Shown: positions 178 through 35,862 of the stretch, piece by piece
Layout of the letters: each line of letters starts with the position of its first letter
Numbering within the stretch: the first letter of the stretch is position 1
Source: an uncultured Thermoplasmata archaeon
GTDB lineage: Archaea > Thermoplasmatota > DTKX01 > GCA-020343715
NCBI GenBank assembly: GCA_965369625.1
Contig: CBDUQW010000002.1
Span: forward strand, 27,708-91,707
Length of the DNA stretch: 64,000 nt
Reading direction: 5' to 3'
Made by a program: the position numbers and the translations under genes
The notes under the pieces: model-generated
Seen by the model: only the letters and a program-made list of their open reading frames with translations
Databases searched by the model: none
Told to the model about the DNA's origin: nothing

Positions 178-265
178 GGTTGGCTAATGCTATCAAAAGA
201 AGTCTGGGGGCTCCCCTCAGGAGCCCTTGAACAACAGTCCGGGAGCACTTGGAGGGTGTGAGGTC

Positions 266-8563: not shown

Positions 8564-11500
8564 CTAGGTGATCTCCCTCTCCAATGCTGCCAGCGGGAAC
8601 GCCGCCGTCGGTGTGATGGACAGGCCAGAGACCTGCCCCCTCGATTGTATGTCCCCTGTCATGTTGATGCCGAGTGTGAAGTTGCCAGCGCTTCCCGCAT
8701 TGGGAAGGATTATCACCAGCACGTTGTAGGCGATACGCTCCTTGACCTCGAACAGGGGCGACCTGATGAACTCCGCCGAGCCGAAGGAATCGAACCACTC
8801 GTCATCGATGTAGACGTCCTGGTTCGGTCCGGCCGCCAGGTCCCAGGCGCTGTTGTTCGTCCTGTCCCAGTAGAGGCCGATGCGGATCCTCGTCCAGTCG
8901 GCGGGGGGGTTGCCCGAGCTGTTGTAGGCCGCGAAGATCAGGCTGTTCACGTCGGCGTTCTCTCCCTCTGCCCAGAAGGTGAGCTTCATCCAGACGTAGG
9001 GCGTGGACTCCGAGGGGGCTGGCGGGCTCAGGTCCTCCATGTTGACCTTGACGGTGCCGCGGGTGCGGATGGGCACCGTGCCCGAGCTGGCGACCATGGG
9101 GGGGTTCCTGGGCAGATCGAGGCACAGGTTCGGATAGGCCGAAGCCAGGTTGGGCAAGGCTGTGGTGGTACCGATGCCACCCGCGTTGATGCTGCAACCC
9201 AGTGTCCATCCCGCTGTGCCCAGGTTCAGCGAGAACACGACCACGATGTTGAAGTCGGTGCCTGGCGTGACCCACCTCAGGGGAGCGGGTGTGAAGGTTA
9301 TCTGGTTAGCCACGAAGGAGCCCGCGTCCTCGGCATCCAGCTCGATGTCGTCGGGTCCCAGCTTTCTGTCGGTGTCGTTGTTCTGGTCCCAGTAGATACG
9401 CACGGTGACCAGGTTGCCCGCCACCGTGCCCAGCTTGTTGACCCTTATGGAGTTGATGAGCACATCCTGTCCCTCGGCGTTCAAGGTGATCTTGAACACG
9501 GGGACGTTCTGTGACGAGTCGACCAGGGGGTCGGGTATGAGGCCCTCTCCGTGGACGTAGAGCTGTCCGTTGACGGTCCTCCAGTAGGACCTGGACGGGA
9601 TGTCGCTTCCTCCGTAGCCCACAGGGGTGATCGGCAGGGTCGTGATCTGCCCGATCACCTCCGTCTGGGTCGCCAGCTCTATGCTGGTACGTATGGTCTT
9701 GCCCTCTGTCCCGTGGGCCAGGTAGGCGTACGAGTCGACCCGGACGTAACCGTAGAAGTTGGTGTCCATGGGCACCGTCCACATGGGCACGCCGGGGATG
9801 CCGTTGTCGAACAGGGCATGACCTGTGGCGTCGAAGGTGATGGTCTGGTCGTACGCCAGGGTCCCCGAGGATGAGGAGGATATCAGGATGCGGATGCCCG
9901 TGACCTCGTCCCAGGCGATGGTGCCTGCCAGGGTCACGTTGATGGAATGGAACTCGATGGGCTCGCCGTAGCACTTGTAGAGCCACCTGCGCTGGTAGGC
10001 CGTTCCGCCAGCCCTCGTGGGAAGCGTGGTGGTCCCCTCCATGTCGATGGTAACGTGGCCCGAGGAGGCCAGCGTCTTGATGGTGGGGGATGAGGGCAGC
10101 GGCACGCCGCCGGGGGTCTGGGGGTTGATGCCGTCGCCCGAGACCTCGGTGATGGCGAAGGTGTCCGCCGCAGTGTCCATCTGAACACCGACCGTGTCCC
10201 CGTTGTTGCCACGGATGTTGAAGTAGATGTACACATGGCGGTACGGCCACGCCTCGTCTATCCTCCAGCCTCCGGGCGGTGCGTTGACCTCGAGGCGTCG
10301 TGTGATGGCGTTGAAGGCCAGGGGGCCAGAGTCCAGGAAAGTACCGCCCGAGTCCTTGATGTAGCAGTCGACGTCGGTGACGTCGATGTTGCCGAGGAGG
10401 GTCAGGTTGAGCTGGTGGATGAAGACGGTCTCGCCCGTCGCCTGGTAGAGCAGCTCGATCATCTTGACGTCGTCGGTATGGGTCAGGATGCGGGTGGGAT
10501 GCCGGTTGTAGCCCCAGACCTTGAACACGCCCTTGATGGTCAGCACCGAGCTGTCGATGGGGAAGCTGCCGATGGGAAGGATCCTGATGGGGGTGGACAC
10601 ACCGACGGCGGTGATGCTGGTCTGCGACTCGATGCGGACGCCGATGGAGAAACCCTCGGTCCCGCCCGAGATGGAGACCAGGATCCAGACGTACGTGGGC
10701 TCGTCCTCGATGCAGGTGAAGAGGGGAGCCCCGATGAAGTCACGGTAGCCCCCGATGAAGTTGCCGCCCGAACCGGGCAGCTGGTAGTCGAGGACCGTGT
10801 TAAGGACCCCGTCGCGGTCCTTGTCCCAGTAGGCCCTCAGGACCACCTTGTTGTCGGCGATGGTCCCCAGTTTGCGGACGCGTATGCCGTTGACGTTGAT
10901 GGACTCGCCGTTGGACAGGAACTCCAGCTTGAGGAAGAGCTTGTTGGCATCGCCCGACTTGAGTATGGTGGGTGGGGGGACCTCGTCGGTGCCCGTCAAG
11001 CGGAGGGAGCTGAACGAGGTCGACACCGTCACCCTCACGGTGGCGGTGGCGGAGCGTCCAGTGTCGTCGGTGGCGGTGACGGTGAAGGAGTAGTCGCCGG
11101 GCAGCACGGTGGTGGCGATCTTGAGCAGGCCGGTTATGTAGACGCCGTCGCCCCTGCTGTCGACCATGGCGGTGCTGCCGGCACCGAAGGCGGTGACGGT
11201 GAAGGTGCCGTCGCCGTTGTCGGTGGAGGTGATGGTCGCGGTCACGCTGCCCGTGGTGGGCAGGTCGCCGTCGATGTCCTTGCAGACGGCGTAGAGGCGC
11301 CAGGTGGTGTAGTCGTTGTTGGGAAGCACGTCCACACCAGGCAGGGTGGAGTCGGCCCATGCGTAGGCTATGATGGGATCGTGGTCGCCGCCGGAGCTGA
11401 CGCCCCGCTGGACAACGGTGTAGAACAGAAGGCTGTTCGATGTCACGTCGACGATCTTGACGTCCAGCTTGGCCTGGGTGGAGATAGTGCCCAGGAAGTC

Positions 11501-11836
11501 CATGGTCCAGATGTCACCCGGTTCCATGACCTTCTTGCCGGCCGGCAGGCCATCCGATATCTCGAACCTTGTCGGTGTGTCATCTATGCTCACAAGGATG
11601 TAGGTCTCGCCTTCCTTGAGGGGCTCTCCTCCGGTGTGCTGCAGGTGCAGCGTGCCATCCACGGCCGAGGTCCGCTCCAGCATCGGAACGATGTCCGCCT
11701 GGATGGTGGCCTCGGGGCCAGGGATGCTGTACACAAAGGATAGGACCACCGAGAACAGGGACACGGTGATCACAAGGATGAGGAGATTCCCAACGACCTC
11801 GGAGACTGCGTCGTCTCCCGATCTTTTCCACAACAT
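8564..11836 (-). CDS. Large (1090 aa) secreted adhesin-like protein with an archaeal class III (pilin-like) signal peptide. Ig-like/Big-domain-rich, with Thr/Ser/Gly/Val-rich composition.
   Basis: N-terminus MLWKRSGDDAVSEVVGNLLILVITVSLFSVVLSFVY closely matches the archaeal Pilin_N consensus (D/E-R/D-A-V-S-E-V-I/V-G + hydrophobic helix). Long beta-rich repetitive body. A TATA-like GTATAAATAC sits at 11888-11897 upstream. Confidence 0.7.
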   Translation of the reverse strand: MLWKRSGDDAVSEVVGNLLILVITVSLFSVVLSFVYSIPGPEATIQADIVPMLERTSAVDGTLHLQHTGGEPLKEGETYILVSIDDTPTRFEISDGLPAGKKVMEPGDIWTMDFLGTISTQAKLDVKIVDVTSNSLLFYTVVQRGVSSGGDHDPIIAYAWADSTLPGVDVLPNNDYTTWRLYAVCKDIDGDLPTTGSVTATITSTDNGDGTFTVTAFGAGSTAMVDSRGDGVYITGLLKIATTVLPGDYSFTVTATDDTGRSATATVRVTVSTSFSSLRLTGTDEVPPPTILKSGDANKLFLKLEFLSNGESINVNGIRVRKLGTIADNKVVLRAYWDKDRDGVLNTVLDYQLPGSGGNFIGGYRDFIGAPLFTCIEDEPTYVWILVSISGGTEGFSIGVRIESQTSITAVGVSTPIRILPIGSFPIDSSVLTIKGVFKVWGYNRHPTRILTHTDDVKMIELLYQATGETVFIHQLNLTLLGNIDVTDVDCYIKDSGGTFLDSGPLAFNAITRRLEVNAPPGGWRIDEAWPYRHVYIYFNIRGNNGDTVGVQMDTAADTFAITEVSGDGINPQTPGGVPLPSSPTIKTLASSGHVTIDMEGTTTLPTRAGGTAYQRRWLYKCYGEPIEFHSINVTLAGTIAWDEVTGIRILISSSSSGTLAYDQTITFDATGHALFDNGIPGVPMWTVPMDTNFYGYVRVDSYAYLAHGTEGKTIRTSIELATQTEVIGQITTLPITPVGYGGSDIPSRSYWRTVNGQLYVHGEGLIPDPLVDSSQNVPVFKITLNAEGQDVLINSIRVNKLGTVAGNLVTVRIYWDQNNDTDRKLGPDDIELDAEDAGSFVANQITFTPAPLRWVTPGTDFNIVVVFSLNLGTAGWTLGCSINAGGIGTTTALPNLASAYPNLCLDLPRNPPMVASSGTVPIRTRGTVKVNMEDLSPPAPSESTPYVWMKLTFWAEGENADVNSLIFAAYNSSGNPPADWTRIRIGLYWDRTNNSAWDLAAGPNQDVYIDDEWFDSFGSAEFIRSPLFEVKERIAYNVLVIILPNAGSAGNFTLGINMTGDIQSRGQVSGLSITPTAAFPLAALEREIT

Positions 11837-12604: not shown

Positions 12605-14140
12605 GTGAGGTTCGAACTTCGTGGCGCCATTCTCTTCAGCGCCGACCTGGGACCCGTCGCAGAGCACCTCGAGGGCTACGTCAGGGAGATCGAGGCGGGT
12701 CCCCTCCTAAAGGGCGTCCCAGAGGGCGAGGAGGGCCCCCGCGTCGAGGGGGCCGAGCCCAAGGGTCAGGAGCTGGCGCTGGTCATCGTCTCCGGTCGTT
12801 ACGTGCGGGCCCACGAGGCGCTGCTGAGGCTCCGCAAGGAGCTGTCCACCCGCATGGGCAAGGAGCACCGCATCGGGGCCCGCGGTGTGCGCATCGACCG
12901 CTACACCATCTCCTTCTCGGTGTCCAAGGAGCCCGCCCGGCCCGTCAAAGTGCCCTTCGCCACCTCCCTCGAGTTCCAGGGCGAGACCGCCGTTCTGACC
13001 CTCACCGACGTCTCCGAGGACTTCCTCAGCCGCAACTACGTCGACCGGCTGGTGGCCCTGGTCAGGGAGAAGGTGGACGCCCAGGGGTACGAGGGCAAGG
13101 AGGAGTTCTGGGAGCTCATCTGGACCTCGCCGCCCAGGGAGATGCCCTACCAGGAGGACCCCACCGAGGACATGGCGGGGCGGGGATGGGTCCAGCAGGG
13201 CCCGGGGAAGGGCCGGTGGTTCTTCCGGCCCCAGGCCGCCGCCGTGATCCGGACGATGGAGCGCATCGCCCTGGAGAAGGTGCTCCACCCCCTCGGCTTC
13301 CAGGAGGTCATCTCGTCCTCGCTGGTCCCCTTCGAGGTCTGGCTGAAGACGGGCCACCTCAAGGGCGTGGCCAACGAGATCTACTACTTCTCCGAGCCCG
13401 CCACCCGCAACGAGGAGGCATGGGAGGAGCTGCGCGACCTGGTGAAGGTAACCCGGGAGGTGCCCCGTGAGAAGCTGGTCGACCTCCTCGACGCGCCCAG
13501 GGCGGGCATGACCTACGCCCAGTGCCCCAACATATACTGGTCCTTCCAGAAGCGCACCCTGGCCGACGAGGACCTGCCCATCATGGTATACGACCGCACC
13601 GCCAACTCCTACCGGTACGAGTCCGGGGGGCGTCACGGCATCGAGCGGGTGGACGAGTTCCACCGCATCGAGCCCGTCTACATCGGCACCATGGACCACC
13701 TGGTGGAGCTCCGCGAGGCCCTCATCGACCTCTACAAGCGCGTGTTCAACGAGATCCTCGAGCTGGAATGGCGCATGGCCTGGGTGTCCCCCTTCTACCT
13801 CCAGCAGGCGGGGATGGCCGGGGGAGAGGAGGAGGAGGCCCCCGTCCCCGACGAGCGACGGGAGGGCACCATCGACTTCGAGGCCTACCTGCCCTACCGG
13901 GGCACCCGCGAGGAGAGCGAATGGCTGGAGTTCCAGAACCTGTCCATCCTGGGCGACATCTACACCACCGCCTTCAACATCAAGGCCCAGCGGCACGAGC
14001 TGGTCTCGGGATGCTCCGGCATAGGGCTGGAGCGGTGGACCGCCGTCTTCCTGGCCCAGAAGGGCCTCGACCCCGCCGGATGGCCCGATGGGTTCAAGGC
14101 CTTCCTGCCCGACCTCCCCAAGGGCTTCACCTTCCACTGA
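12605..14140 (+). CDS. serS: Seryl-tRNA synthetase, methanogen-type (atypical class II SerRS).
   Basis: GTG start preceded by GGAGGA. Class II motif 2 SYRYESGGRHGIERVDEFHRIE and motif 3 GCSGIGLERW. Zn-ligand candidates (AQCPN about aa 303, ERVDEF about aa 350, SGCSG about aa 468) sit at positions matching Cys306/Glu355/Cys461 of the Methanosarcina barkeri atypical SerRS. Length 511 aa and a non-canonical N-terminal domain. Confidence 0.75.
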   Translation: MRFELRGAILFSADLGPVAEHLEGYVREIEAGPLLKGVPEGEEGPRVEGAEPKGQELALVIVSGRYVRAHEALLRLRKELSTRMGKEHRIGARGVRIDRYTISFSVSKEPARPVKVPFATSLEFQGETAVLTLTDVSEDFLSRNYVDRLVALVREKVDAQGYEGKEEFWELIWTSPPREMPYQEDPTEDMAGRGWVQQGPGKGRWFFRPQAAAVIRTMERIALEKVLHPLGFQEVISSSLVPFEVWLKTGHLKGVANEIYYFSEPATRNEEAWEELRDLVKVTREVPREKLVDLLDAPRAGMTYAQCPNIYWSFQKRTLADEDLPIMVYDRTANSYRYESGGRHGIERVDEFHRIEPVYIGTMDHLVELREALIDLYKRVFNEILELEWRMAWVSPFYLQQAGMAGGEEEEAPVPDERREGTIDFEAYLPYRGTREESEWLEFQNLSILGDIYTTAFNIKAQRHELVSGCSGIGLERWTAVFLAQKGLDPAGWPDGFKAFLPDLPKGFTFH

Positions 14141-14245: not shown

Positions 14246-15235
14246 GTGGCCAAGAAATCAGCCCGCGCTGAGGCGAGGAAGGTAAAGGACCGCTGGAAGT
14301 CCAAGGTCTGGTACAACCTGTACGCCCCCGAGATATTCGGGGCGAGCCAGATCGGCGAGACCCTGGCGGACACCCCCGAGAAGCTGAACGGTCGCGTCAC
14401 CCAGATCACCCTTCAGGACATAACCGGTGACTTCTCGCAGATGCACGTCAAGCTGAACTTCCAGATCAACCGCGTGGTGGGACTGGACGCCCACACCGCC
14501 TTCGTCGGCCACGACCTGACCTCCGATTACATCCGCCGCCTGACGCGCAGGAAGCACTCCAAGATGGACGGCATCTACGATGTCACCACCCTCGACGGCT
14601 ACCGCGTGCGCATCAAGCCCATGGCCATCACCGAGCGGCGCATCAAGTCCTCCCAGCAGGAAGCCATCCGTGCCCAGATGATGCAGGTGGTCAACGACAG
14701 CGCCAGTCGCGCAACCCTCCCCGAGGTCATCAGGGCGATGATCTCCGGAGAGATGTCCAAGTCCATCTTCCGCAAGTGTAAGCCCATCTACCCCATCAAG
14801 CGGGTGGAGATCCGTCGCAGCCAGGTGATCGGTCGCGAGTTCGTCCCCGACGGCCCCGTCCGCGAGGGTGGCGACGGCTACGTGCTTGGAGGTCCCGAAC
14901 CAGAACCCGAGCCGGAAGGCGAGGAGGCTCCCGCCGAGGGCGAGGTACCCGTCGAGGCTCCCGCCGAGGAGACCCCTGCAGAGGAGGCTCCCGCGGAGGT
15001 TCCCGCCCCCGCCGAGTCGGAGGAGGAGTCCGAGGTGGACCCCGAGACGGTGGCCGCCATCATAGCCTCCTTCGGGGACATCCCGGGCATCGGCCCGTCC
15101 AAGGCCCAGGCCCTCTTCGACAGCGGTTACACCTCCGTCGAGGAGATCAAGGCCCTCTCCGCGGAGGACCTGGCCAAGGTCGAGGGCATCTCCGAGGCCC
15201 TGGCCAAGAGCGTCCACGAGGCCCTCAACGAGTAG
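14246..15235 (+). CDS. rps3ae: 30S ribosomal protein S3Ae (eS1) fused to a C-terminal acidic Pro/Glu/Ala-rich linker and a helix-hairpin-helix (HhH) domain.
   Basis: N-terminus MAKKSARAEARKVKDRWKSKVWYNLYAPEIFG... is the canonical S3Ae start. It is about 210 aa, followed by EPEPEPEGEEAPAEGEVPVEAPAEETPAEEAPAEVPAPAESEEESE and then IASFGDIPGIGPSKAQALFDSGYTSVEEIKALSAEDLAKVEGISEALAK (two GIG-type HhH motifs). Confidence 0.8.
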   Translation: MAKKSARAEARKVKDRWKSKVWYNLYAPEIFGASQIGETLADTPEKLNGRVTQITLQDITGDFSQMHVKLNFQINRVVGLDAHTAFVGHDLTSDYIRRLTRRKHSKMDGIYDVTTLDGYRVRIKPMAITERRIKSSQQEAIRAQMMQVVNDSASRATLPEVIRAMISGEMSKSIFRKCKPIYPIKRVEIRRSQVIGREFVPDGPVREGGDGYVLGGPEPEPEPEGEEAPAEGEVPVEAPAEETPAEEAPAEVPAPAESEEESEVDPETVAAIIASFGDIPGIGPSKAQALFDSGYTSVEEIKALSAEDLAKVEGISEALAKSVHEALNE

Positions 15236-15268: not shown

Positions 15269-16522
15269 TCAGATGAGCTTGCCCCAGGTGTGCTCGGTGT
15301 TGCACCGGGTCCATCCCAGGTCCTCGAGGTCGGTCACGTCGGAGCCCACCTTGAGCCGGAAGGTGTTGACCTGGGTCGGGTACTCGTTGTAGTGGAGGAT
15401 GGACCTGGCGATGCCGAAGCGCTTGGGCTGTTCGAAGCGCCAGTAGGCCCTGGAATACGCCTCCAGCTCCAGGTCGATGGTGGCCTCGGCGCTCTCGCCC
15501 CGGACGGTGAACACGGGGTAGTCCTCGTCGGTGAGGACGTGCTTGATCTTGGGCTTCTTGAACTTGTACAGCCGCTGGGCGGTCTCGTCCCAGAACTGCA
15601 GGCTGCGGTTGAGGAAGATGTCGCCGAAGTCCCATCGGCTCCTCGGCCGCTCGTCCTTCCGGTGCAGCTGGGGTCCGACGTGGGGGAAGAAGTAGTCCAG
15701 GTAGTCTCCCCTCTGGGTGTGCATCACCGTCCAGTACCAGGGTATGGCGGGGGCGTTGACGCGGACCTTCTGGAAGTACGCGGTGGAGCCCGCGGCGTCC
15801 ACCTCCTCTCCGTCCACCTTGTAGGTCCCCTCCACCTTCATCCCGTAGATGCGCAGGATGTTGTACGAGTACTTCTTGGAGTAGGCGTTGGCCCGGTAGC
15901 GGTGGTCGGACATGAAGGGGGTCCAGTCCGTCATGTCCAGGTGGAAGCCGTGGCCGTCCTCGGGCATGTCGATGTCGAGCCTGTACCTGCCGGGCCTTCC
16001 GGAGAACCGGAGGTCCTTGGGGGACTGGGGGTCCAAGAGGCCATCAGCGCCTCGCTTTTCGACCCTGAACCAGTTCGGCTCGAGGATGACGGGGTCCTTC
16101 ATCCTCCTTCCATCGTACCACCAGGCGGCGGTCATCCCGTTGAACTTGAGGTCGATGTCATCCCCCTCGGCCTTTCGCTCTATCTTTCCCTCGGGGGTCC
16201 AGTCAAAGTAGTCCACCTTTATCCAGTCGGTGTACTTGGTGGACCACAGGATCATCAGCTGCCGCGTCCGTCGCGGGTTGTCCGGGTCGGGGAAGAAGAA
16301 GAGCCACCACCACCACCACCAGGTGAGCCCCTGGTGGATGTTCGAGAGGTCCAGGTCCCACATCAGGGCCTCGGCCTCCGGGCCCAGGACCTCCTTGGCG
16401 TCGGTGGTGTGGCCCCTGGGCCTCTCCACAGTCTGGTGACCGACCGGCTCCTCCATCACGGGTGAATCCCCCGTTCGATACATAAAGGTGCCGTGGGGTC
16501 CCCACCCAGCAAGATGGTTCAC
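15269..16522 (-). CDS. Conserved hypothetical cytoplasmic protein, Trp/Tyr-rich, containing a hexa-Trp run. The start could be M1 (16522), M14 (16483) or M23 (16456).
   Basis: Coherent non-shadow composition over 417 aa. A TATA-like cttataaagg at 16548-16557 is appropriately placed upstream on the minus strand. Confidence 0.55.
   Translation of the reverse strand: MNHLAGWGPHGTFMYRTGDSPVMEEPVGHQTVERPRGHTTDAKEVLGPEAEALMWDLDLSNIHQGLTWWWWWWLFFFPDPDNPRRTRQLMILWSTKYTDWIKVDYFDWTPEGKIERKAEGDDIDLKFNGMTAAWWYDGRRMKDPVILEPNWFRVEKRGADGLLDPQSPKDLRFSGRPGRYRLDIDMPEDGHGFHLDMTDWTPFMSDHRYRANAYSKKYSYNILRIYGMKVEGTYKVDGEEVDAAGSTAYFQKVRVNAPAIPWYWTVMHTQRGDYLDYFFPHVGPQLHRKDERPRSRWDFGDIFLNRSLQFWDETAQRLYKFKKPKIKHVLTDEDYPVFTVRGESAEATIDLELEAYSRAYWRFEQPKRFGIARSILHYNEYPTQVNTFRLKVGSDVTDLEDLGWTRCNTEHTWGKLI
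16303..16320 (-). repeat. (TGG)6 trinucleotide repeat encoding WWWWWW. It is followed by CTC(TTC)3 encoding LFFF within the hypothetical gene.
   Basis: Plus strand reads ccaccaccaccaccacca immediately after gaagaagaagag. Confidence 0.85.
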
Positions 16523-16762: not shown

Positions 16763-19700
16763 TCATCGATGCTTCAGCATGTGCCCTATCAGGAAACCCA
16801 ACACGAGCAGTGCAAGGGCGGTCAAGAGCAGTATGATGATGACCTTGGCGTCCTCCGTGGGTCCCCAGACGGGCTGTGCCTCAGGTTTCCCCCTCACCAA
16901 TAGGTCCGTCTCCGAACGGGCGGAGGCGGTCCCGTCCGTAACGATGGCCGAGATCCGGTGCGCGCCCGCAGCAAGGTCGTTGACCGTGAACTCCACATCA
17001 CGGTCCGTCTCGATGGTGAGCAGGATGCCCGAGATGTTCGAGATGAGGGTGAGAGTCACCATCTCGCCGTAAATGAAGTCGGGGTCCTCGACGGAGATCC
17101 TGAAGGTCACCGGCGCCCCCTCGTCGAAGGCGCTACCGTCGCGAGGTGCCAGGAAAATCGGGGGCAGGGGTGGCTCCCCAATCTTCGTTACATGTACGGT
17201 GATGTCCTCCGATGCCGAACCCCCACGGCCGTCCGTTCCAGAAAGGGTGACATGGTGGGTGCCCAGGTCCCCCGCATCCGCTGAGAGCCTCAACGAACCG
17301 TTCCCAAGGAGGCTTGCGCCGTCCCAGTCCGACTCGATGGATAGATGGACCCGGTCCCCGTCCTTGTCAATGGTGAGGACATCGAGGACCAGCTCCTCTC
17401 CCACCTGCATCTCGATCTCTGCCGGGAGGTGGTAATCGCCGACGGCCAGTAGGTCCGGGTTGTGGTTCCTATCGATGACCCGTATGGGTAGGAGTCCCAC
17501 CGTGGTCTCGTACCCGTCCGATACCCTGAACTCGATCTGGTGGGGTTCCTCGTAACTTGGGTAGTACAGACGTATCATCAGGTCCGTGATGTACAATACC
17601 GCAGGGTCCCCGGAGCTCAGTTTGAGGTCGTGCTTGGCGTCGTCCACGTCGTAGATATAGGGACCCAGGTCCACTTCCTTCAACATCCTCACCGATATGT
17701 TGAACTGTGGGATCTCCATGATGCTCGGCGGTGAATTCAGGTGCGTGAACTTGAAGGGTTCCGACCATGGACCGCCACGTTTGGGTGGACGCGAATAGAG
17801 CGTCGCCACCCGCCAGTAGAGCTCACCCTTGCGGGTCCCCGAGACATTGGCGTAGGGATCTGGAACATCCGAGGTCAACGTGACGAGGTCGAAGTCAGGG
17901 TCGAGGGCCAGCTGGAACCTGTAGCCCCATACATCCCCGTTGGTGGTCGACCCGTGGACCGGCGACCATGTGAAAAGGGGAACGTCCTTGCTCTCGTGCC
18001 CGTTCCACGGGGTCTGCAGGGCGGTCATGCTCATGGGGACGTACCGGTGGGCGCGTCCCTTGGATGTCATCCTTCCCGTCCCCTCCCCGCCCGTTGGTCC
18101 CAGGGCGGCGGACCTCCAGCAGAACCCACCATCGCCTCCGGTGGCGCCCAGGTGATTGTTGGCGTGGATGACCGGCTCAATGACCACCAGGCGCATCGAG
18201 GCATCTCCTCCGTCTCCAACCCCCTGCTCGATGACACCGGTCCCGCCACCGTGGCTGATCCAGAGGCCATCCTCGATGATACATCCACCACCACCGCCGG
18301 AGTAGGAGCCGCCGCCCCCACCTCCCCTCCATTCGTTCCTAGCGGCCATCATGTGAGAGCGTCCAGCCCTTCCTCCGGGGCCACCTCCACCAGCGTGGAC
18401 GTTGACATCCACGAGGAAGAACGTTCCCTGGGTCGATGTAACCTCCAGTCGGGCATCTCCTCCCGAGGCCACGTCACCCTCCACCGTGCCACCAGACCCC
18501 CCGTTCACGGTGAGCGGGTCTGATGCGGACGGGATCCATCCTGCCCCTCCACCTCCGGAGTGCCCACCCCCTCCAGCTCCACTGGGACCTGTGGATGTCC
18601 CTCCATCACCTGCCCTGCCCCCTTGGCCCGCGGTCACGTTCAGGATGCCATCGGAAAGATGGACGGAATGCGACACGATGGTCGCGGTGGCGTCGCCCCC
18701 TGAACCCACGTGACCTTCGACCGTTCCTCCGTTTGCTCCCCCGTTCCGAGATTCATGACTGCCACCTCCGCCTCCCGAGTAACCTCCACCACCGGCACCG
18801 CCGAGACCCGCCGTGTCACCACCGTCGCCAGCATCACCACCGTCACCCGCCTGGATGGCCACCTCCGAGGCCTGCATGGAAACCTCGACCGCAAGGATGT
18901 ACAGGGTCGAATCGCCGCCGACGCCAACCCATCCCGAGACCTGTCCACCTGGACCCGCGGGATGCTCGGGGTCCGAGGCCCCCGTGCCTCCCGAGTAACC
19001 GCCACCTCCGGCGCCCAGGCCGGCGTTGGACTTCACGGAGCCACCGTCGCCCGCATCACCTCCGTCACCGCCCACGACATGGACCACAGAGCCCTGGACA
19101 TCGACCTTGTTCGTGGTCATACCGATGAAGGCGTCCCCTCCGGAACCAACCCTGTCCGAGACAGACCCACCCTGGGTATAACCCCCGCCGAGGACTTGGG
19201 CGGTGCCCTCGGAGGTCACGCCGTCGGGGGCGTCCCCTCCCACTCCCGCCTGGACGAGGACGGTGGAGTTCAATATGGCGAGGGAGGCGAAGTCCAGTGT
19301 GGTCTTCAGGACGAAGCGGGCATCGCCCCCGGCGTACCTACGACCGTCCAGGTCGTCGAGCGTCACCGGGATATCCGGGCCCATTCCATCGCCCGCCGAC
19401 AGGACCACGGACGCGTTCTCGATCAATATCTCCCGGCTGGCCCTCACGTTCATCTCCACGCTCACTCCCTGACCGTCCCAACGGTTCGAGCCGTCAGGTC
19501 CCTCGATGATGATCGAGGATCCATCGGTGACGCGCATGTGCCTGCACGTCCCGTTGATGCCGATGACCTCCCCTGCCGTCCAAGGAGAGATGACCAGGTC
19601 GCCCCCTGTGAGATCGACGGTGGCCAGTCCTTCCATGGTCATTTGGGATACCGACAGCGTCGTCCCCTCGGGTATCACCAGGTGACCAAAGGTCGTTATC

Positions 19701-19891
19701 TTGACGGAGCTCCACGACTCCGTCCCCGAGACGACGTACTCCTGGTTCACGTAGAGGCTGGCATCGGTGGTGGGAGGGCGATCGGCACCAAGGTCGGAGG
19801 GCGTCACGGGTGGGTCTATTAAGGGTACGACGGTCACCATGAGCATTGTGAGGGCCACGACGAGCGGGACCAAGGGGCACGGACGTTTCAT
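16763..19891 (-). CDS. Paralog B' of the giant Gly/Asp-repeat surface protein family (1042 aa). Domain order: signal peptide, beta-helix-like N-domain, about 370 aa of Gly-rich repeats, Fn3-like domain, Ig/cadherin-like domains, then a C-terminal TM anchor (VIIILLLTALALLVLGFLIGHMLKHR).
   Basis: ORF composition. N-terminal signal MKRPCPLVPLVVALTMLMVTVVPL. Repeats of the type AGDGGDAGDGG...GGAGGGGYSGGGGG...VGSGGDA. FTWSPVHGST...ELYWRVATLY is Fn3-like. The start ATG overlaps the stop of the upstream paralog (ATGA at 19888-19891). Confidence 0.8.
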   Translation of the reverse strand: MKRPCPLVPLVVALTMLMVTVVPLIDPPVTPSDLGADRPPTTDASLYVNQEYVVSGTESWSSVKITTFGHLVIPEGTTLSVSQMTMEGLATVDLTGGDLVISPWTAGEVIGINGTCRHMRVTDGSSIIIEGPDGSNRWDGQGVSVEMNVRASREILIENASVVLSAGDGMGPDIPVTLDDLDGRRYAGGDARFVLKTTLDFASLAILNSTVLVQAGVGGDAPDGVTSEGTAQVLGGGYTQGGSVSDRVGSGGDAFIGMTTNKVDVQGSVVHVVGGDGGDAGDGGSVKSNAGLGAGGGGYSGGTGASDPEHPAGPGGQVSGWVGVGGDSTLYILAVEVSMQASEVAIQAGDGGDAGDGGDTAGLGGAGGGGYSGGGGGSHESRNGGANGGTVEGHVGSGGDATATIVSHSVHLSDGILNVTAGQGGRAGDGGTSTGPSGAGGGGHSGGGGAGWIPSASDPLTVNGGSGGTVEGDVASGGDARLEVTSTQGTFFLVDVNVHAGGGGPGGRAGRSHMMAARNEWRGGGGGGSYSGGGGGCIIEDGLWISHGGGTGVIEQGVGDGGDASMRLVVIEPVIHANNHLGATGGDGGFCWRSAALGPTGGEGTGRMTSKGRAHRYVPMSMTALQTPWNGHESKDVPLFTWSPVHGSTTNGDVWGYRFQLALDPDFDLVTLTSDVPDPYANVSGTRKGELYWRVATLYSRPPKRGGPWSEPFKFTHLNSPPSIMEIPQFNISVRMLKEVDLGPYIYDVDDAKHDLKLSSGDPAVLYITDLMIRLYYPSYEEPHQIEFRVSDGYETTVGLLPIRVIDRNHNPDLLAVGDYHLPAEIEMQVGEELVLDVLTIDKDGDRVHLSIESDWDGASLLGNGSLRLSADAGDLGTHHVTLSGTDGRGGSASEDITVHVTKIGEPPLPPIFLAPRDGSAFDEGAPVTFRISVEDPDFIYGEMVTLTLISNISGILLTIETDRDVEFTVNDLAAGAHRISAIVTDGTASARSETDLLVRGKPEAQPVWGPTEDAKVIIILLLTALALLVLGFLIGHMLKHR

Positions 19892-22800
19892 CGCCTGACC
19901 TCCTCCAGATAGGGATCCTCGACCCCACTCGAGCCTGCCAGGTAACCTATCGTGACCACAATGATGAAGATGAAGGCGAACAACACATAGAGCCAGGTGT
20001 GGTCCTGCCCCGGCGGGGGCGATGATTCCTCCGCCTCATCCACCGTGAGATGGAGGGTGACGCTCTTCTCGTACGTCCCATCGTCGACGGTGATCACTAT
20101 CCTGTGGTCTCCCGGGGAGAGCCGGTCCGTGGCGAGGGATGCGAACGACTGGGTTGACGTTTGACCCAGCGTCCCCGATGTGTCCGACCAGAAGGTGACG
20201 TTGAGCCACGCTCCCGAAGGGATGTCCGGGTCCGATACCCTCACCGAGAAGACCACCAGATCCCCCTCCCTGAACACCGACCGGTCTGCAGGGCTGAAGA
20301 CCTCTGGCGGTTCCGGCGGTCGGTTCGACCTCACGACGACGATCCAGACGACCACTGAGGCGGTACCTCCCCTTCCATCATCCACGATGACCTTCAGTCT
20401 GTTCGAACCCAGGTCATAACTGTCAGGATGGAGCACGATGACCCCGGCGGGGGTGATCTCGACCCCTATCATGTCCGATGTGAGCGTGTATGTCAGGGGA
20501 TCGTCGTCCGGGTCGTCGGCCTCCACCTTCAACCACTCCTCCTCGAGCTCGGCCATCGTCCATTGATAGGGGGCCAGCCTCTCACCCACGCTCACTATCA
20601 CGGGTGCCTCGTTCGCGTCGATCACCTCGACGATGACATGCCCCATAGTGGTGCTGACCCCGTCGGACACGCTATAGTGGACACGGTGGGGCGCCTCCCA
20701 CCATTCGTAGTAGAATATGACGAACAGTCCCGTGATCGATTCCACCCCGGGATGGTCGATCTCGACCACCAAATCGTCTATGAAGGTGTCCCTGTCGTGA
20801 AAGTAGTATCCCAAGTAGATGGATTTGGGCTGGTCCTCTATCACCGTCACAGTAGGGTAGTCATCGATCTCCGGTGGCTCGTTGTAGAACCTGAAGGAAC
20901 TGAACCTGACCTCTGGCCCATTGACCTGCGGGGGGCCTCTGTAGACCGCGATGACCTTCCAGTAGTACGTCCCCATCTGCAGGTCAGGGATGGAAAGGTC
21001 CGGTCTGACGGACGTGGTCTCCGTCACGATTTCGGTGAACGGGATGTCACGGGCCATCTTGAACAGGTAGTGGACCACATCACCGTCCTCCGTGGACCTG
21101 TGGACGGGCATCCACTCGAAGCTGGGCACGAAGTGTAGTTCCAACCTGTCCCCAGGGCTCCAGAGGATGACCTCGCTCTTGGGGATGTACTCCCACCTCG
21201 TTCCGTCCCTGGTGCTCCGCACCCGGGCTTTTCCCTGGGGGTCCTCGAGGTTGAGCGAGCGAGTGGAGCCACAATCTCCCCAGAGCACGTAGATCATGGT
21301 GTTCCTATGCAAGGAAAGCCTCTCGCTCTGGATGTCCAGCGAGGCGTTGCCGCCATCCCCCACCTTCCCGAGGACGTCCGATGCACTACCGCCTGAACCG
21401 TAGGTCTGACCCTCATGGCCTGCACCACCTCCCCCGCCGGAGGAGTGGCCACCGGCCCCACCACCACAGGCCGGTCGCTGGTTCTCATCGATCCTCGCGT
21501 TCCCATAGCCTCCCTCGTCACCTCCCGACCCTCCCACGACGTTGAACACGGAGGTCGTCGAGACGAGACGGGGTGACTCCAGGAGGAGACTTGCATCGCC
21601 ACCGCTCCCCACCGACCCTCTCAGAGCGCCTCCTGCGCCACCGTCGGTGCCAGGCGTTCCCCCGGATGAGTTCCCGTCGGCGCCACCACCCCCTCCGGTG
21701 TAACCACCGCCTCCTCCTCCTGCGAGGGCACCCGCATCGCCACCATCACCGCCTTCACCCCCGTTCCCTGCAGTGGCCAGGACCCTTGACGTTCCTATAT
21801 CCATGGTGTCTGCGCCCGTCAAGGTGGCGCTGACATCCCCGCCCCTCCCCACAGACCCCGTGACCGTGCCACCGTCGCCACCGGGCATGAGCCCGTGATT
21901 GCCACCTCCGCCGCCCGAGTAGCCGCCGCCGCCGGCCCCGCCACCTCCATCCGTGAGCGAGCCTCCGTCGCCAGCATCTCCACCGTCGCCTCCCAGCATC
22001 TCGATGCGGGCGCCTTCCAGTTCCACCCATCCCCCTACGAGGTTGAAACTCACGTCACCTCCCTTGCCCACGCCTTCTGACACGGAACCCCCTGGGCCCG
22101 GGGGGTCCTGGGCGTTGGAGGCGCTGGCACCGTCCCCACCGGAGTAGCCCCCGCCACCGCATCCGGCGTCGGTCGTCCACTTGGTGCTCCCCCCGTCACC
22201 AGCGTCCCCGCCGTTCCCAGCCGTCATGTTCAACGTGGTGTCCGTGATCATGATGTGGTCGGAAGAAAGGACGCCGTCCACGTCGCCTCCCGAGCCCACG
22301 TTGCCAGATACGTCGCCGCCCCGGGTGTAGCCACCACCAATCCCCCCACGGTCACCATCCCCTCCGCGAATAGGGGATTGGCCATCGGGAGCCCGGCCGC
22401 CGTTCCCCGCGGTCAGGGCGATCTTGCAGTTGGAGAGGATGAGCATGTCGTTGTCCTTCACGAGGGTAACGCTCATCGTTACATCCCCTCCCGCGAAGGA
22501 GTATCCGTCCAGGTCCCCATCGGTCAATGACTCCGGGGGAGAGAACCCATTCCCCGCGGTCAAGGAGATGGTGGAATCCATCCACATCATCGTTCGGGTG
22601 GAGGTGAGGTTCAGACCCACCGAGCAGCCCCTGCTGGTGGGGACGTCGTACCCTCCGTCGGGACCCCGGATGTTCACCAGGCTGCCCTTGGTGATTTCGA
22701 ACCAGCTGCAATGCCCCGAGATCCCCACGAACTCCCTGTACGTTCGGGGTTCGATCTCGAGCACACCCCCCTGCAGGTGCATCTGGGCGTTGTCGAGGAG

Positions 22801-23046
22801 GGTGACGCTGTCGGCCACCAGGTGACCGCCATCGCCGATGATGAGCGAGCCCGTGGACTCCACCACCACATTGGACCACACCTCGTAGTGGTCCACGGAG
22901 CAGTTCGAGTCGATGACCATGGTTTCACCAGAACGGGTCCCCGGCGAGGCCGATACCAAGGAGGGATGGTCCACCTCCAGCATCCCCAGCGGACAGGCTA
23001 GGAGGAACATCGAGACAACAAGCGCAAACGAAACCCCCGCGCGCAT
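19888..23046 (-). CDS. Paralog A' of the giant Gly/Asp-repeat surface protein family (about 1052 aa from ATG 23046).
   Basis: The 6-frame ORF extends to 23115, but the signal peptide MRAGVSFALVVSMFLLACPLG begins at ATG 23044-23046. Same architecture as above. The Fn3-like segment (MGTYYWKVIAVYRGPPQVNGPE) groups it with the 26326..29478 paralog. A TATA-like attattat at about 23066-23078 sits in the 113-nt gap upstream. Confidence 0.8.
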   Translation of the reverse strand: MRAGVSFALVVSMFLLACPLGMLEVDHPSLVSASPGTRSGETMVIDSNCSVDHYEVWSNVVVESTGSLIIGDGGHLVADSVTLLDNAQMHLQGGVLEIEPRTYREFVGISGHCSWFEITKGSLVNIRGPDGGYDVPTSRGCSVGLNLTSTRTMMWMDSTISLTAGNGFSPPESLTDGDLDGYSFAGGDVTMSVTLVKDNDMLILSNCKIALTAGNGGRAPDGQSPIRGGDGDRGGIGGGYTRGGDVSGNVGSGGDVDGVLSSDHIMITDTTLNMTAGNGGDAGDGGSTKWTTDAGCGGGGYSGGDGASASNAQDPPGPGGSVSEGVGKGGDVSFNLVGGWVELEGARIEMLGGDGGDAGDGGSLTDGGGGAGGGGYSGGGGGNHGLMPGGDGGTVTGSVGRGGDVSATLTGADTMDIGTSRVLATAGNGGEGGDGGDAGALAGGGGGGYTGGGGGADGNSSGGTPGTDGGAGGALRGSVGSGGDASLLLESPRLVSTTSVFNVVGGSGGDEGGYGNARIDENQRPACGGGAGGHSSGGGGGAGHEGQTYGSGGSASDVLGKVGDGGNASLDIQSERLSLHRNTMIYVLWGDCGSTRSLNLEDPQGKARVRSTRDGTRWEYIPKSEVILWSPGDRLELHFVPSFEWMPVHRSTEDGDVVHYLFKMARDIPFTEIVTETTSVRPDLSIPDLQMGTYYWKVIAVYRGPPQVNGPEVRFSSFRFYNEPPEIDDYPTVTVIEDQPKSIYLGYYFHDRDTFIDDLVVEIDHPGVESITGLFVIFYYEWWEAPHRVHYSVSDGVSTTMGHVIVEVIDANEAPVIVSVGERLAPYQWTMAELEEEWLKVEADDPDDDPLTYTLTSDMIGVEITPAGVIVLHPDSYDLGSNRLKVIVDDGRGGTASVVVWIVVVRSNRPPEPPEVFSPADRSVFREGDLVVFSVRVSDPDIPSGAWLNVTFWSDTSGTLGQTSTQSFASLATDRLSPGDHRIVITVDDGTYEKSVTLHLTVDEAEESSPPPGQDHTWLYVLFAFIFIIVVTIGYLAGSSGVEDPYLEEVRR

Positions 23047-23159
23047 GGGAACTACTAAGGACGCATGCTGATAATAATCCCATCGATGCGTGACACCCGC
23101 GTCGTCCGAGGCCAAGGTCCAGGACCGACGAGGGAAAGGATGGGGTCATAATCCCAGGC

Positions 23160-26100
23160 TCACTCCGTAGGCCTTCCCCTCCGTGTTTGCCACCGTCCTG
23201 CACCGTAGGCCACCGCGAAGAGGGCGATGGTTGCCATCAGGTAGAGGGTGGGGTCCACCTCCTCGGTCTGGGGAAGGACCACGTTGGAGGGCTCTGGTGG
23301 CCCCTCCACCGTCAGGATGAACCAGGTGTTCGACGAGTAGCGGCCATCGGTGGCGACCACGCTGATCCTGTGGTTGCCAGGTTGTAGCCCGGAGTGGCTG
23401 AAGGATGCCACCCCGTCGGTCTCGATGGTCTTGAGGACCCCCGAGGAGTTGGAGATGAACGACACGTTGAGCCGCTGACCGAACCGGACGTCGTCATCCT
23501 CGACGGACACCACGAACCGGACCAGGGTCCCAAGGGGGACCGTGGTCCCGTTGTCCGGGCTGATGACCACCGGGACACGGGGCGGGTCGTTCACGTTCGT
23601 CACGACCACCGTGATCTCCATCTCGGCGGTCTGGCCCTCCTCGTCCGTCACCGTCAGGATGGCCTTGAAGGTGTCCACCTCCCCCTTGCCGGCCGCCACC
23701 TGGAGGGTCCCGTTCTCGTGGGCGATCACCCCCGGCCACCCGTAGGTGCTGTAGTTGAACTCGTCGCTGTCCACGTCGTGGACGAGGATGTCGTACCACT
23801 CCGAGGTCCCCTCCTCGATGGTGAGCCTTGTGGGAGGACGTATCCCCTCGAGCCCCCTGATGTAGGGCGGGTGCATGTGCCTGAGCGCCTGGACGGCGAA
23901 CTCCCCGTACACCCTGCTCAACCCGTCGGTCACCGAGAACCGCACCACGTGACCCGTGTCCTCCTCCCCGAAGTAGACGCTCAGGTTCAGATCGGATATC
24001 CTGAACAGGTGAGGGTCATGGCATTCGAGCACCAGACGGTCATCGTCGTCGTCGGGGTCGTCGATGTAGGGCGCGAGGTCGATCCTCGTCACCGTCTCGA
24101 TCTGGACCGTCATCAGCGGGATATCCCCGATCACGGGTGGCAGGTTCACGTACTCGAAGACGCGAGGTTCGGACCAGATCCCCCTGGGGTTCGGAGGGTT
24201 GGCGTAGCGTGGGGCCACCCTCCAGTAGAAGGTGAAGTTGGGCACCCAGATGGCATCGTAGCTCTCGGTCGGGACGATGACCGTCCACTCCGGGCTGGAG
24301 AAGTCCGGGTCGTCGTCGACCGTGAGCTCGTGCCCCACAACGGCCCCGCCGTCGGAAGAGGGATGGATGGGAGCCCATGTGAATTTCGGAAGGCTTGAGT
24401 CGATGGTGCCGTCCTCGGGGAGGATCGGAACTCCCCTGCTCCTCGGGATATATACCTCCGTCATACCGTTGGAGGTCAAACGGCCCTCTCCCCTCCCGGA
24501 CAGCGGTCCGAGCTCGGGGGAGACCAGGCACGGACCTTTCTTACCACGGGTCGCCCCAAAGAGGTTATCGAGGAGGACCGTGGCATTCTCAGGCTCGAGA
24601 AGGAGGGATGCGTCCCCGCCGTCCCCTACGGTCCCGAGGGCACCACCGCTCCTGCCGCCTGTGCCCCCGGATCCCGTCCGACCCGTGCTGCCGGCACCTC
24701 CCCCTCCCGAGTAGGAGCCACCACCTCCACCTGCCATCTCGTTCTCGATGTCACCGATCCACAGGCTCCTGCCATGGACCCCTCCCCGTCCCCCGTCACC
24801 TCCACCGACCGAGAAGCCCCATCCGTGGAGGCGTGCATCCTCCGCTGCAAGCTTGACCTTTGCGTCCCCGCCCATTCCCACCTCGTGGGTGACGGGTCCA
24901 CCGTCCCCCCCGTTCGTGCCACGGTCCAGGGTCAGGTTTCCTGCCATGCGGCCCGCTGCACCTCCGCCGCCGCCCGAGTAGCCGCCGCCGCCAGCGCCGC
25001 CCATCGGCAACGGAAGGGGAGCCCGGACCACGGACCCACCATCGCCAGCATCACCGCCGTTGCCACCAAGGGCCTGGACCAGTGAGGACCCGGTCCTCAG
25101 CTCGCCGGAGAGGCCGTACCTGATGGAGGCATCACCGCCATGTCCCACTGCGAAACCGACACGTCCGCCTTCCGCCCCATCGGCGGACGCGGAGCTTCCA
25201 CCGCCGCCACCGGAGTACCCGCCTCCTCCTCCACCTCCCTCGCCGGTGGAGCTGCCGCCGTCGCCCGCGTCGCCGCCTCTCCCACCATGGACCTGGATGT
25301 CCGTGCCCACCTGAGAGCAGTTCCCTCCCGACACGCGTAGGGTGGCGTCACCTCCAGCCCCGACGCGGCCCGTGACATCTCCGCCTGGCGTCGCCTGGAG
25401 GGCGCCAGCGTCCGCTCCGGGGCCGCCGGAGTAACCTCCACCTCCACCTCCCGCGGTGACGTCAGGACCCACCGAGGCCCCGTCACCCGCATCGCCGCCG
25501 TCACCACCGCTGATGTTGATGGATGTGCCGTCCAGCACGATAGAGCGAGCTGAAAGATGGACCCTGCTGGTTCCCCCGGTGGCGACATCACCCGTTACCT
25601 GACCGCCTTCGGTGAACCCACCTCCCCTGCCTCCGGTCGCGCTGTGGGCCGCCGTCCCGTTGGGGGCGTCCCCACCGTCACCTCCTTTGACGTCGATGCG
25701 GGAGTCGATGATCTTGAGGGAGGTTCCCGAGGAGCCCACGGTCAGGGAGATAGAGGCGGGGCCACCCGCCGATACCTCGCCTTCCAGGTCACCGTCGGTG
25801 TACGGCCTGCTGGGGGAATGACCAGCACCTCCCGTCAACCAGATGAGGGAGCCCTCTATCTGGATCCTCACGCTGGCGGTGAGATCGATGGAGGTGCTCT
25901 CTCCATGGCTGCCCTCGATAGTCCCGTTACCGGCCCCACCGATGGCCGAGATGATCGAGCCTGGCGACATCGTCAGCTCGCGACACCCCCCTGAAAGGCT
26001 CCTCGGACCGCGGTCGAAGGACCCGCCCAATATCAGGGACCCCCCCCTGATCTCCAGCACGCCCCTGAGGGAGACGCTTCCGGCGAAGAGGGTCGAGTTC

Positions 26101-26336
26101 GCCTCGATCACGAGCCTCCCGTCCCTCCCGACCTGGATCTGGTCCCAGGACTCCGAACCGGTCACCGTGTAGGTCTCGTCGACCACCAGCACATCCCCGG
26201 AACGATGGGTGCCCTCTCCGGCGACGTCCATCGTCGCCATCGGGAGCATGAGGGCCAGGACCACCAGGAGATTGACCAGGACCGGCACCGCCGAGGACCG
26301 CGGGTACGGGCCCCACGGACCGAGCCTAATCGGCAT
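23160..26336 (-). CDS. Paralog B of the giant Gly/Asp-repeat surface protein family (1058 aa). Most similar to 16763..19891.
   Basis: Signal peptide ...SAVPVLVNLLVVLALMLPMATM, Gly-rich repeats, FTWAPIHPSS...FYWRVAPRYANPPNPRGIWSEPRVF (compare P1 ELYWRVATLYSRPPKRGGPWSEPFKF), C-terminal TM LYLMATIALFAVAYGAG. The start overlaps the 3' end of the upstream gene by 11 nt. Confidence 0.8.
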   Translation of the reverse strand: MPIRLGPWGPYPRSSAVPVLVNLLVVLALMLPMATMDVAGEGTHRSGDVLVVDETYTVTGSESWDQIQVGRDGRLVIEANSTLFAGSVSLRGVLEIRGGSLILGGSFDRGPRSLSGGCRELTMSPGSIISAIGGAGNGTIEGSHGESTSIDLTASVRIQIEGSLIWLTGGAGHSPSRPYTDGDLEGEVSAGGPASISLTVGSSGTSLKIIDSRIDVKGGDGGDAPNGTAAHSATGGRGGGFTEGGQVTGDVATGGTSRVHLSARSIVLDGTSINISGGDGGDAGDGASVGPDVTAGGGGGGYSGGPGADAGALQATPGGDVTGRVGAGGDATLRVSGGNCSQVGTDIQVHGGRGGDAGDGGSSTGEGGGGGGGYSGGGGGSSASADGAEGGRVGFAVGHGGDASIRYGLSGELRTGSSLVQALGGNGGDAGDGGSVVRAPLPLPMGGAGGGGYSGGGGGAAGRMAGNLTLDRGTNGGDGGPVTHEVGMGGDAKVKLAAEDARLHGWGFSVGGGDGGRGGVHGRSLWIGDIENEMAGGGGGSYSGGGGAGSTGRTGSGGTGGRSGGALGTVGDGGDASLLLEPENATVLLDNLFGATRGKKGPCLVSPELGPLSGRGEGRLTSNGMTEVYIPRSRGVPILPEDGTIDSSLPKFTWAPIHPSSDGGAVVGHELTVDDDPDFSSPEWTVIVPTESYDAIWVPNFTFYWRVAPRYANPPNPRGIWSEPRVFEYVNLPPVIGDIPLMTVQIETVTRIDLAPYIDDPDDDDDRLVLECHDPHLFRISDLNLSVYFGEEDTGHVVRFSVTDGLSRVYGEFAVQALRHMHPPYIRGLEGIRPPTRLTIEEGTSEWYDILVHDVDSDEFNYSTYGWPGVIAHENGTLQVAAGKGEVDTFKAILTVTDEEGQTAEMEITVVVTNVNDPPRVPVVISPDNGTTVPLGTLVRFVVSVEDDDVRFGQRLNVSFISNSSGVLKTIETDGVASFSHSGLQPGNHRISVVATDGRYSSNTWFILTVEGPPEPSNVVLPQTEEVDPTLYLMATIALFAVAYGAGRWQTRRGRPTE

Positions 26337-29478: not shown

Positions 29479-29490
29479 GATTTATAAGGG

Positions 29491-35672: not shown

Positions 35673-35862
35673 GGAGACCCGACCACCTGGTTCAACCTCA
35701 CTCCTTGCATCCATTCCTGCCTGGCCCATATATACAGTCTTGTACGGTTCTTTATCGTTCCCATACGGGGTATGGGGTCCTGGCACTCGCTCACGTGGTG
35801 CCATGTGCGACCGTACGCCTTAAGGGTTGCGACGTGGTTTTCCTCGGGGCGAACCCAGTTAT

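Follow-up and report, generated by a model that had tools for sequence, protein, structure and literature searches.

Among the closest described counterparts of the proteins considered here are beta-helical adhesins fixed to the cell surface. In pertactin, Vag8, UpaB and Ag43 (all autotransporters), PfbA of S. pneumoniae, the SRRP of L. reuteri and the A-domains of the Candida glabrata Awp adhesins, the anchor is a beta-barrel, an LPXTG signal or GPI. The two-partner secretion (TPS) adhesins HMW1-PP (2odl), EtpA (8cpk), HxuA (4rt6) and FHA (1rwr) also contain beta-helices. Two other groups are of interest for their glycine or calcium content. These are the polyglycine-II (PGII) sandwiches, e.g., snow-flea antifreeze protein (2pne), gp38 of phage S16 (6f45) and the modelled PE_PGRS proteins (PMC7830552), and the RTX repeats (PF00353) together with the Ca2+-bound beta-helix of Marinomonas MpAFP region IV (3p4g). 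A DNA stretch of 64,000 nucleotides from an uncultured Thermoplasmata archaeon (assembly GCA_965369625.1, contig CBDUQW010000002.1, positions 27,708 to 91,707; hereafter the window) holds four tandem paralogs, genes A to D, each with a Gly/Asp-rich repeat region. This region is likely to make up most of an N-terminal ectodomain that spans about 580 folded residues, predicted as a right-handed parallel beta-solenoid, and that would act as the distal recognition or adhesion module of C-terminally membrane-anchored Thermoplasmata surface proteins. Since beta-helical surface proteins on immunoglobulin (Ig)-type stalks are common, and the fold class and the logic of beta-helix tip, Ig stalk and anchor are well known, this is not a new kind of system.

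The locus differs from each of these relatives. It has no sequence relationship with the anchored beta-helical adhesins, none of which possesses a glycine-dominated 73-aa coil, and here the place of their anchors is taken by a C-terminal transmembrane (TM) helix. Identity of the domain to the TPS beta-helices is 9-15%. The NPN[LGI] pattern is absent from all four proteins (neither NPNL nor NPNGI occurs), the Pfam family Haemagg_act is not matched, and the 73-aa Gly-rich repeat of the Thermoplasmata family has no counterpart in TPS adhesins; the host is an archaeon, presumably without an outer membrane or TpsB partner, and the proteins carry an anchor of their own. No Omp85-type transporter (TpsB) was matched among the window open reading frames (ORFs) scanned with Pfam, which were a part of those present. 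The PGII sandwiches are similar in design, with conserved (GGX)n motifs separated by variable loops, a packing scaffold of glycine, and non-Gly residues that are exposed and variable. They are surface-recognition proteins, a role that the present family may share. In contrast to them, the family combines a hydrophobic beta-arch in each unit with a predicted beta-helix, and shows no detectable sequence similarity to them. The PE domain of the PE_PGRS proteins has no Pfam match in A-D, and the host is archaeal, not mycobacterial.

The four paralogs are co-directional ORFs of about 1045 aa on the minus strand, with pairwise identities of 35-36%. Gene A (16763-19891, 1042 aa) is the last of the array and is preceded by B (19888-23046, 1052 aa; listed as 19888-23115), C (23160-26336, 1058 aa) and D (26326-29478 as listed, 1050 aa). 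All share one layout, in which a hydrophobic, signal-like N-terminus is followed by about 160 aa rich in strands, about 370 Gly-rich residues, an Ig-type stalk, a C-terminal hydrophobic helix and a short basic tail. The repeat units were delimited with a hidden Markov model (HMM) seeded on three units of gene A, which finds five imperfect units in every paralog (unit matches E 1e-10 to 1e-32). For gene A these are residues 204-262 (short), 263-336, 337-409, 410-488 and 493-573, together spanning 18173-19282; the corresponding regions are 21322-22443 in B, 24588-25718 in C and 27748-28854 in D, each again with five units. Glycine makes up 30-34% of the region of about 370 aa (30% in gene A) and 7-9% of the remainder of each protein.

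A preliminary description of this DNA had noted a Gly/Asp-rich repeat in all four paralogs, and both the repeat and its motif order are confirmed by the translations and the unit HMM. In each paralog the order is h-x-h-x-GG-x-GGDAGDGG ... GGGGGGYSGGGGG ... GG-x-V-x-G-x-V-G-x-GGDA-x-h-x-h. The region given for gene A (18211-19321) lies close to that found by the HMM, and the approximate ranges for B-D agree with it. The period of 45-50 aa did not hold. Peaks of the lag autocorrelation place the unit period at 72-79 aa. In A, B and D they are higher than in any of 200 shuffles; in C they are not. The shorter figure arose because GxGGDA motifs are spaced alternately by 26 and 47-48 aa, two related half-motifs occurring in each unit, and the longer gap lies inside one unit.

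The same architecture of the unit is seen well beyond this genome. Over 503 family units the spacing is mostly 72-76 aa, with a second peak at 58-62 aa that comes from the truncated first unit; in the four paralogs, too, this unit is 58-62 aa long. The family consensus begins h-x-[NGD]-S-x-h-x-h-x-G-G-x-G-G-[D/N]-A-G-[D/N]-G-G and, after 5-6 variable residues, continues as G-G-G-G-G-G-Y-[S/G]-G-G-G-G, about 10 variable residues, and G-G-x-V-[S/T]-G-x-V-G-x-G-G-[D/N]-A-x-h-x-h. Glycine exceeds 90% at 8 unit positions and reaches 88% at a ninth, an aromatic residue (Y/F) is kept in 88%, and V/I in 86-89% at positions 54 and 58. Units are 37-54% identical to one another, a value that falls to 18-26% when the Gly-Gly columns are left out. 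No tandem repeat is present in the DNA, so that the array is old, and neither a recent expansion nor an assembly artefact. The same five units align, conserved, in homologs from other metagenomes.

The repeat had also been thought not to correspond to a described domain, and that judgement stands. No Pfam or NCBIfam family matches the repeat region at E<=1, and 12 single units give no Pfam match at E<=10. Beta_helix, PbH1 and NosD profiles have no Pfam match in A-D. When PDB sequences were searched with profiles built for the entire N-terminal domain and for the unit, only GGGGS linkers and chance matches were returned. A search of the unit profile against a set of 5.8 billion proteins gave no match among the 8000 candidates listed, which were filled by low-complexity words, so that this result is uninformative. 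The literature on Thermoplasmata surfaces was not found to describe the family. Pfam, NCBIfam, the PDB and the searchable literature contain no description of the glycine-dominated coil of 73 aa, of the sequence family or of the conserved four-paralog locus in Thermoplasmata.

The profile of the N-terminal domain was more productive. Against 1.84 billion representative proteins it recovers 117 clusters at E<=1e-3, of which 100 pass E<=1e-10 and 83 pass E<=1e-30. At least one weak match is false: P0131 is a protein with an Ig-like repeat of 83 aa. The family is small and confined to one clade, and all named members are annotated as 'hypothetical protein' in metagenome-assembled genomes of Thermoplasmata or Thermoplasmatota. 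The repeat module is invariably N-terminal, with 1-7 units (mode 5), and the C-terminal parts differ (Big_7, Big_13, Big_5, fn3) in proteins of up to 3854 aa.

Structure prediction with AlphaFold2 (AF2) of the repeat-bearing segment gives a confident solenoid rather than disorder. For full-length gene A, with an alignment of 45 sequences, the mean predicted local distance difference test score (pLDDT) is 88.9, and it is 95-98 in the Gly-rich region. For residues 40-625 it rises to 94.8 with a predicted TM-score (pTM) of 0.92, and all five models lie between 94.0 and 94.8. The model superposes on solved right-handed parallel beta-helices of the pectin-lyase-like fold. Structural neighbours include Vag8, AlgE4, NosD, pertactin, PfbA, Awp adhesins, phage tailspikes and pectin-lyase-fold enzymes, at 6-15% identity, and the top neighbours are non-enzymatic adhesin secretion domains. 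The structural alignments, of 256-300 residues, reach into the repeats, because only 165 residues of the model precede the first repeat. On these models the domain would belong to the beta-helix class, yet not close to any solved member.

The predicted domain can be followed from end to end in gene A. Residues 44-203 (19283-19762, minus strand, as are all parts of the gene) would form its non-Gly-rich N-terminal part, with short regular rungs in DSSP assignments of the AF2 models and pLDDT of about 96. The five units follow, and residues 574-620 (18032-18172) would complete the beta-helix up to a conserved (I/V)PMS junction seen in the alignments and the AF2 model; its Pro is nearly invariant in alignments A1-A3. 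In DSSP strings, long strands lie at model positions 71, 106, 152, 215, 289, 362, 441 and 525, the spacing rising from 35 to 84 aa, and in the repeat region they recur every 73-84 aa. Within a repeat, strand is assigned only in a beta-arch (13 residues, a turn and 5 residues). The approximately 50 Gly-rich residues of each unit contain about six isolated bridges, whose relative positions do not change from unit to unit. Since a 13-residue strand needs full-length partners and the Gly segments supply none, the long strands are taken to pair with one another, which would put adjacent 73-aa units in register, with one very large coil per unit. An arrangement of three rungs of about 24 aa per unit, suggested by the 26/47 spacing of the motifs, was dropped, as the partner logic favours a single coil for the 73-aa unit.

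Several observations weigh against a beta-solenoid with an adhesive function. A Foldseek search of the PDB returned no significant match (best E 0.05, TM-score <=0.17), the matches listed all being beta-helices. DSSP assigns no regular secondary structure to about 70% of each unit, and the Gly-rich part may be PGII-like instead of beta. The geometry of one coil per unit is deduced from the DSSP string, and the fold assignment comes from AlphaFold2 alone. Finally, the fold neighbours hold many enzymes besides adhesins, and an adhesion or recognition role is drawn from architecture only. With perfect repeats, AF2 has a known tendency to produce confident beta-solenoids too readily (PMC11795689). 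Such an artefact is argued against by the imperfect repeats, by the use of an alignment of diverged homologs, and by the non-repetitive N-terminal 160 aa, which are predicted to be beta-helical too.

In the favoured reading, each repeat of about 73 aa would supply a conserved beta-arch, in which a tight turn joins a strand of 13 residues to one of 5, together with a 'GG-x-V-S-G-x-V-G-x-GGDA' segment and two segments built of glycine alone, (GGx)(GGD)(AGD)(GGx) and GGGGGGY(S/G)GGGG. The units would stack in register along the solenoid axis, one large coil each, with a lateral Gly-rich layer whose packing would admit no other residue. Invariant glycines, the Tyr and two Val would constitute the scaffold; the non-Gly residues, including a row of D/N, would point outward and evolve fastest. 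The whole would make a rigid, membrane-distal recognition or adhesion module raised on a stalk resembling FN3 and cadherin domains and held by a single C-terminal TM helix. The four paralogs would be ancient and non-redundant, and expressed as two bicistrons, D-C and B-A. A recognition or adhesion role is suggested by this architecture, by the predominance of adhesins among the top structural neighbours and by the rapid evolution of the exposed residues.

The stalk and anchor are of familiar types. In A-D the stalk consists of a single FN3-like domain plus two or three domains of cadherin/Ig-like type. That of gene A (residues 621-1000, 16892-18031) matches Big_9 (E 1.9e-7) and Big_7 in Pfam, is a beta-sandwich in DSSP, and is matched by PDB profiles of neogenin FN3, protocadherin and the PKD of KIAA0319L. 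Residues 1013-1041 (16769-16855) form the TM helix, with a Kyte-Doolittle value of 3.27 (cut-off 1.6) and an AF2 helix over the same residues, followed by the short basic tail. Hydropathy and AF2 helices indicate a signal-like N-terminal segment and a C-terminal TM segment in the paralogs; in gene C the latter is hydrophobic, yet under the cut-off. Each paralog contains 6-14 N-x-S/T sequons, and all are acidic, with D+E about twice K+R. Signal-like segment, Ig/FN3 ectodomain, and single C-terminal TM helix with basic tail are together those of an archaeal membrane-anchored surface (glyco)protein.

One alternative is that the glycine segments form bundles of PGII (polyproline-II-like) helices on a short beta-helix core, a hybrid fold and not a pure beta-solenoid. 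In the first segment the triplet G-G-X occurs exactly four times in a row, every third position being D/N, and Tyr34 keeps to this phase; Gly autocorrelation peaks at lag 3 (0.17-0.30). Almost no DSSP strand is assigned over some 50 of the 73 residues in spite of pLDDT of 95-98, and variable loops lie between the conserved Gly motifs, as in gp38 (the logic of the PGII sandwich is described in PMC7830552). The third segment and the beta-arch do not show the triplet pattern. Against the hybrid, no sequence match to 2pne or 6f45 appears even at E<=10, and the isolated beta-bridges of the Gly segments point to in-register stacking of a beta type. We regard the hybrid as rather unlikely, the beta-solenoid being favoured.

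The preliminary description spoke of RTX-like GGxGxD elements, of a resemblance to the Ca2+-binding nonapeptide and of a possible novel Ca2+-binding beta-solenoid. An RTX-type or otherwise Ca2+-dependent beta-roll or beta-helix would bind Ca2+ between stacked coils through the GGDAGDGG and GxGGDA turns, and its folding and rigidity would need extracellular Ca2+, as is the case for RTX repeats and for the helix in region IV of MpAFP. The term RTX-like is a loose description of the turns. The bare hexapeptide does occur, as GGxGGD, 1-6 times per paralog where 1-2 are expected. The resemblance to the nonapeptide goes no further. The strict form GGxGx[DN]xUx is absent from all four paralogs, Gly autocorrelation is about 0 at lag 9, and Pfam HemolysinCabind (PF00353) is not matched at E<=1 by whole proteins or at E<=10 by the 12 single units, nor is any other Pfam family at that level. 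Neither a 9-aa nor a 19-aa period is present, and the actual period is about 73 aa. The aspartates tell a mixed story. In the 20 units of this genome they are well kept (13/20, 16/20 and 18/20 at unit positions 16, 19 and 63), in proteins that are acidic overall. Family-wide, the three candidate positions hold Asp in 39-45% and D+N+E in 56-64%, with R, K, S and P tolerated, which weakens the case for Ca2+. Acidic residues are missing altogether from the Gly-Tyr segment in the middle, which could not continue a Ca2+ ladder, and rows of D/N in beta-helix turns are also explained as Asx ladders. Ca2+ binding is possible but finds no family-wide support in Asp, and a Ca2+-dependent fold of this sort is doubtful.

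A broader proposal would combine parts of these readings. The array might represent a solenoid architecture not seen before, in which each giant coil of about 73 residues joins a conventional beta-arch to in-register, PGII-like layers of near-pure glycine. The four paralogs, fixed long ago and expressed in the pairs D-C and B-A, would build a heteromeric spike or coat, a major component of the envelope in a Thermoplasmata lineage, and the D/N rows might be stabilized by Ca2+. Taken as a whole this is speculative, and we think it rather unlikely. Cultured Thermoplasmatales, a related order, are to our knowledge without a paracrystalline S-layer.

The kinship with pectin-lyase-fold proteins raises the question of a surface-tethered carbohydrate-active enzyme (a polysaccharide lyase, hydrolase or epimerase). 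Enzymes do occur among the fold neighbours, as noted above. Against this, none of the Pfam families Beta_helix, Pectate_lyase or GH28 is matched, the conserved residues are nearly all Gly, Val or Tyr with no conserved polar cluster seen, and the top structural neighbours are non-enzymatic. The surface non-Gly residues are moreover the fastest to evolve (23-34% identity between orthologs), unlike a conserved catalytic groove. An enzyme seems improbable.

A disordered, flexible glycine-rich spacer, which the preliminary description had offered as a stalk and for which the AF2 solenoid would be a repeat-bias artefact, could appeal to the Gly content, to the documented over-prediction and to the Foldseek result, yet it is very improbable given five AF2 models that agree (mean pLDDT 94.0-94.8), imperfect repeats, conserved unit number and length (spacers are normally free to vary in length and sequence), and position-specific conservation over about 100 diverged clusters with Gly above 90% at fixed columns and Tyr and Val kept.

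The four-gene array is itself conserved. It is retained in three other contigs (L002-L004), between AFOR/Fer4 and a conserved gene of 392-442 aa that is followed by S3Ae. In a scan of genome contigs, whose listed matches were taken up by glycine-rich patterns, at least one locus (L001) was confirmed. Best matches to the arrays of L002-L004 are position-wise: D to gene 1 (45%), C to gene 2 (37-42%), B to gene 3 (45-46%) and A to gene 4 (42-43%). Such position-wise orthologs in syntenic arrays indicate that the quadruplication predates these lineages and that all four copies were kept. For the 417-aa gene next to the array, identity with L002 is 79%, compared with 37-46% for the array proteins. 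Between orthologs the non-Gly residues of the repeat are the most divergent part, with 23-34% identity versus 40-45% in the stalk; a conserved glycine scaffold bearing fast-evolving exposed residues describes this pattern if the model is right. The window itself is of archaeal character: an N-terminal domain of archaeal type IV pilins (Pilin_N), S3Ae and AFOR are encoded in it, and the closest named relatives of its S3Ae are from Thermoplasmata.

Overlaps and upstream signals suggest that the array is transcribed as two leaderless bicistrons, D-C and B-A. The stop of gene D and the start of gene C overlap by 11 nt, and the stop of B and the start of A overlap as ATGA. A TATA-like TTATAAA (29481-29487, minus strand) lies 27 nt upstream of an ATG at 29457, and a TATA-like ATTATTAT (23071-23078, minus strand) lies 28 nt upstream of the ATG at 23046. 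At these distances the mRNAs would be leaderless, and genes D and B would be shorter than the listed ORFs. For D the true start is likely Met8 at 29457, giving 1043 aa, as homologs begin MxKG and the TATA-like box stands upstream. For B the listed TTG at 23115 is unlikely to be the true start; ATG 23046 is the probable one, favoured by homolog N-termini and by its TATA-like box.

If the prediction is true, the repeat is a domain of more than 30% glycine that is rigid and not disordered, and a compact, highly conserved example. It would be a new repeat family for the structural biology of beta-solenoids and of polyglycine-II, and a possible scaffold in which invariant glycines bear fast-evolving exposed residues. 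The array also marks a four-gene locus for surface proteins that is conserved among uncultured Thermoplasmata, a group about whose envelopes and means of adhesion almost nothing is known.

Directly downstream of the array, in this window and in all syntenic contigs, is a conserved hypothetical protein of 417 aa (15269-16522, minus strand) with no Pfam match and a run of six tryptophans (LTWWWWWWLFFF). It was considered as a member of the system and rejected, because it has a TATA-like TTTATAA of its own upstream, lacks a signal sequence and evolves at a different rate. Next to it, the S3Ae gene (14246-15235, plus strand) encodes the ribosomal protein fused to a C-terminal helix-hairpin-helix (HHH_5/HHH). 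Dozens of Thermoplasmata relatives share this fusion, which is missing in more distant S3Ae homologs. The gene at 12605-14140 (plus strand), with a class II aminoacyl-tRNA-synthetase core and an N-terminal tRNA_bind_4 domain, stands beside S3Ae in L002 and L003 too.

On the other side of the array, 31899-35804 (minus strand) encodes 1301 aa in which modules typical of ectodomains (NPCBM_assoc, CARDB and FixG_C-like Ig) are joined to C-terminal winged-helix domains of DNA-binding type (HVO_0163_N, HTH_24/MarR). The product may be a membrane-spanning transcription regulator, and the gene is syntenic beside AFOR in L002-L004.

Other surface proteins are encoded in the window. A 1081-aa protein (46527-49772, minus strand) has Pfam Beta_helix, Big_13 and three Glucodextran_B domains, a conventional beta-helix unlike the unrecognised Gly-rich family. 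The archaeal type IV pilin N-terminal domain occurs, with PKD-like repeats, in a protein of 1090 aa (8564-11836, minus strand) whose neighbour (6938-8536, minus strand) carries DUF7289 and Laminin_G_3; the two genes look like a pilus-associated surface-protein locus. Near the start of the window, a 1732-aa ORF (227-5425, plus strand) combines an N-terminal CARDB with a double zinc ribbon near residue 1400. The long ORFs that overlap it on the opposite strand have no Pfam matches and are probably an artefact of high GC content.

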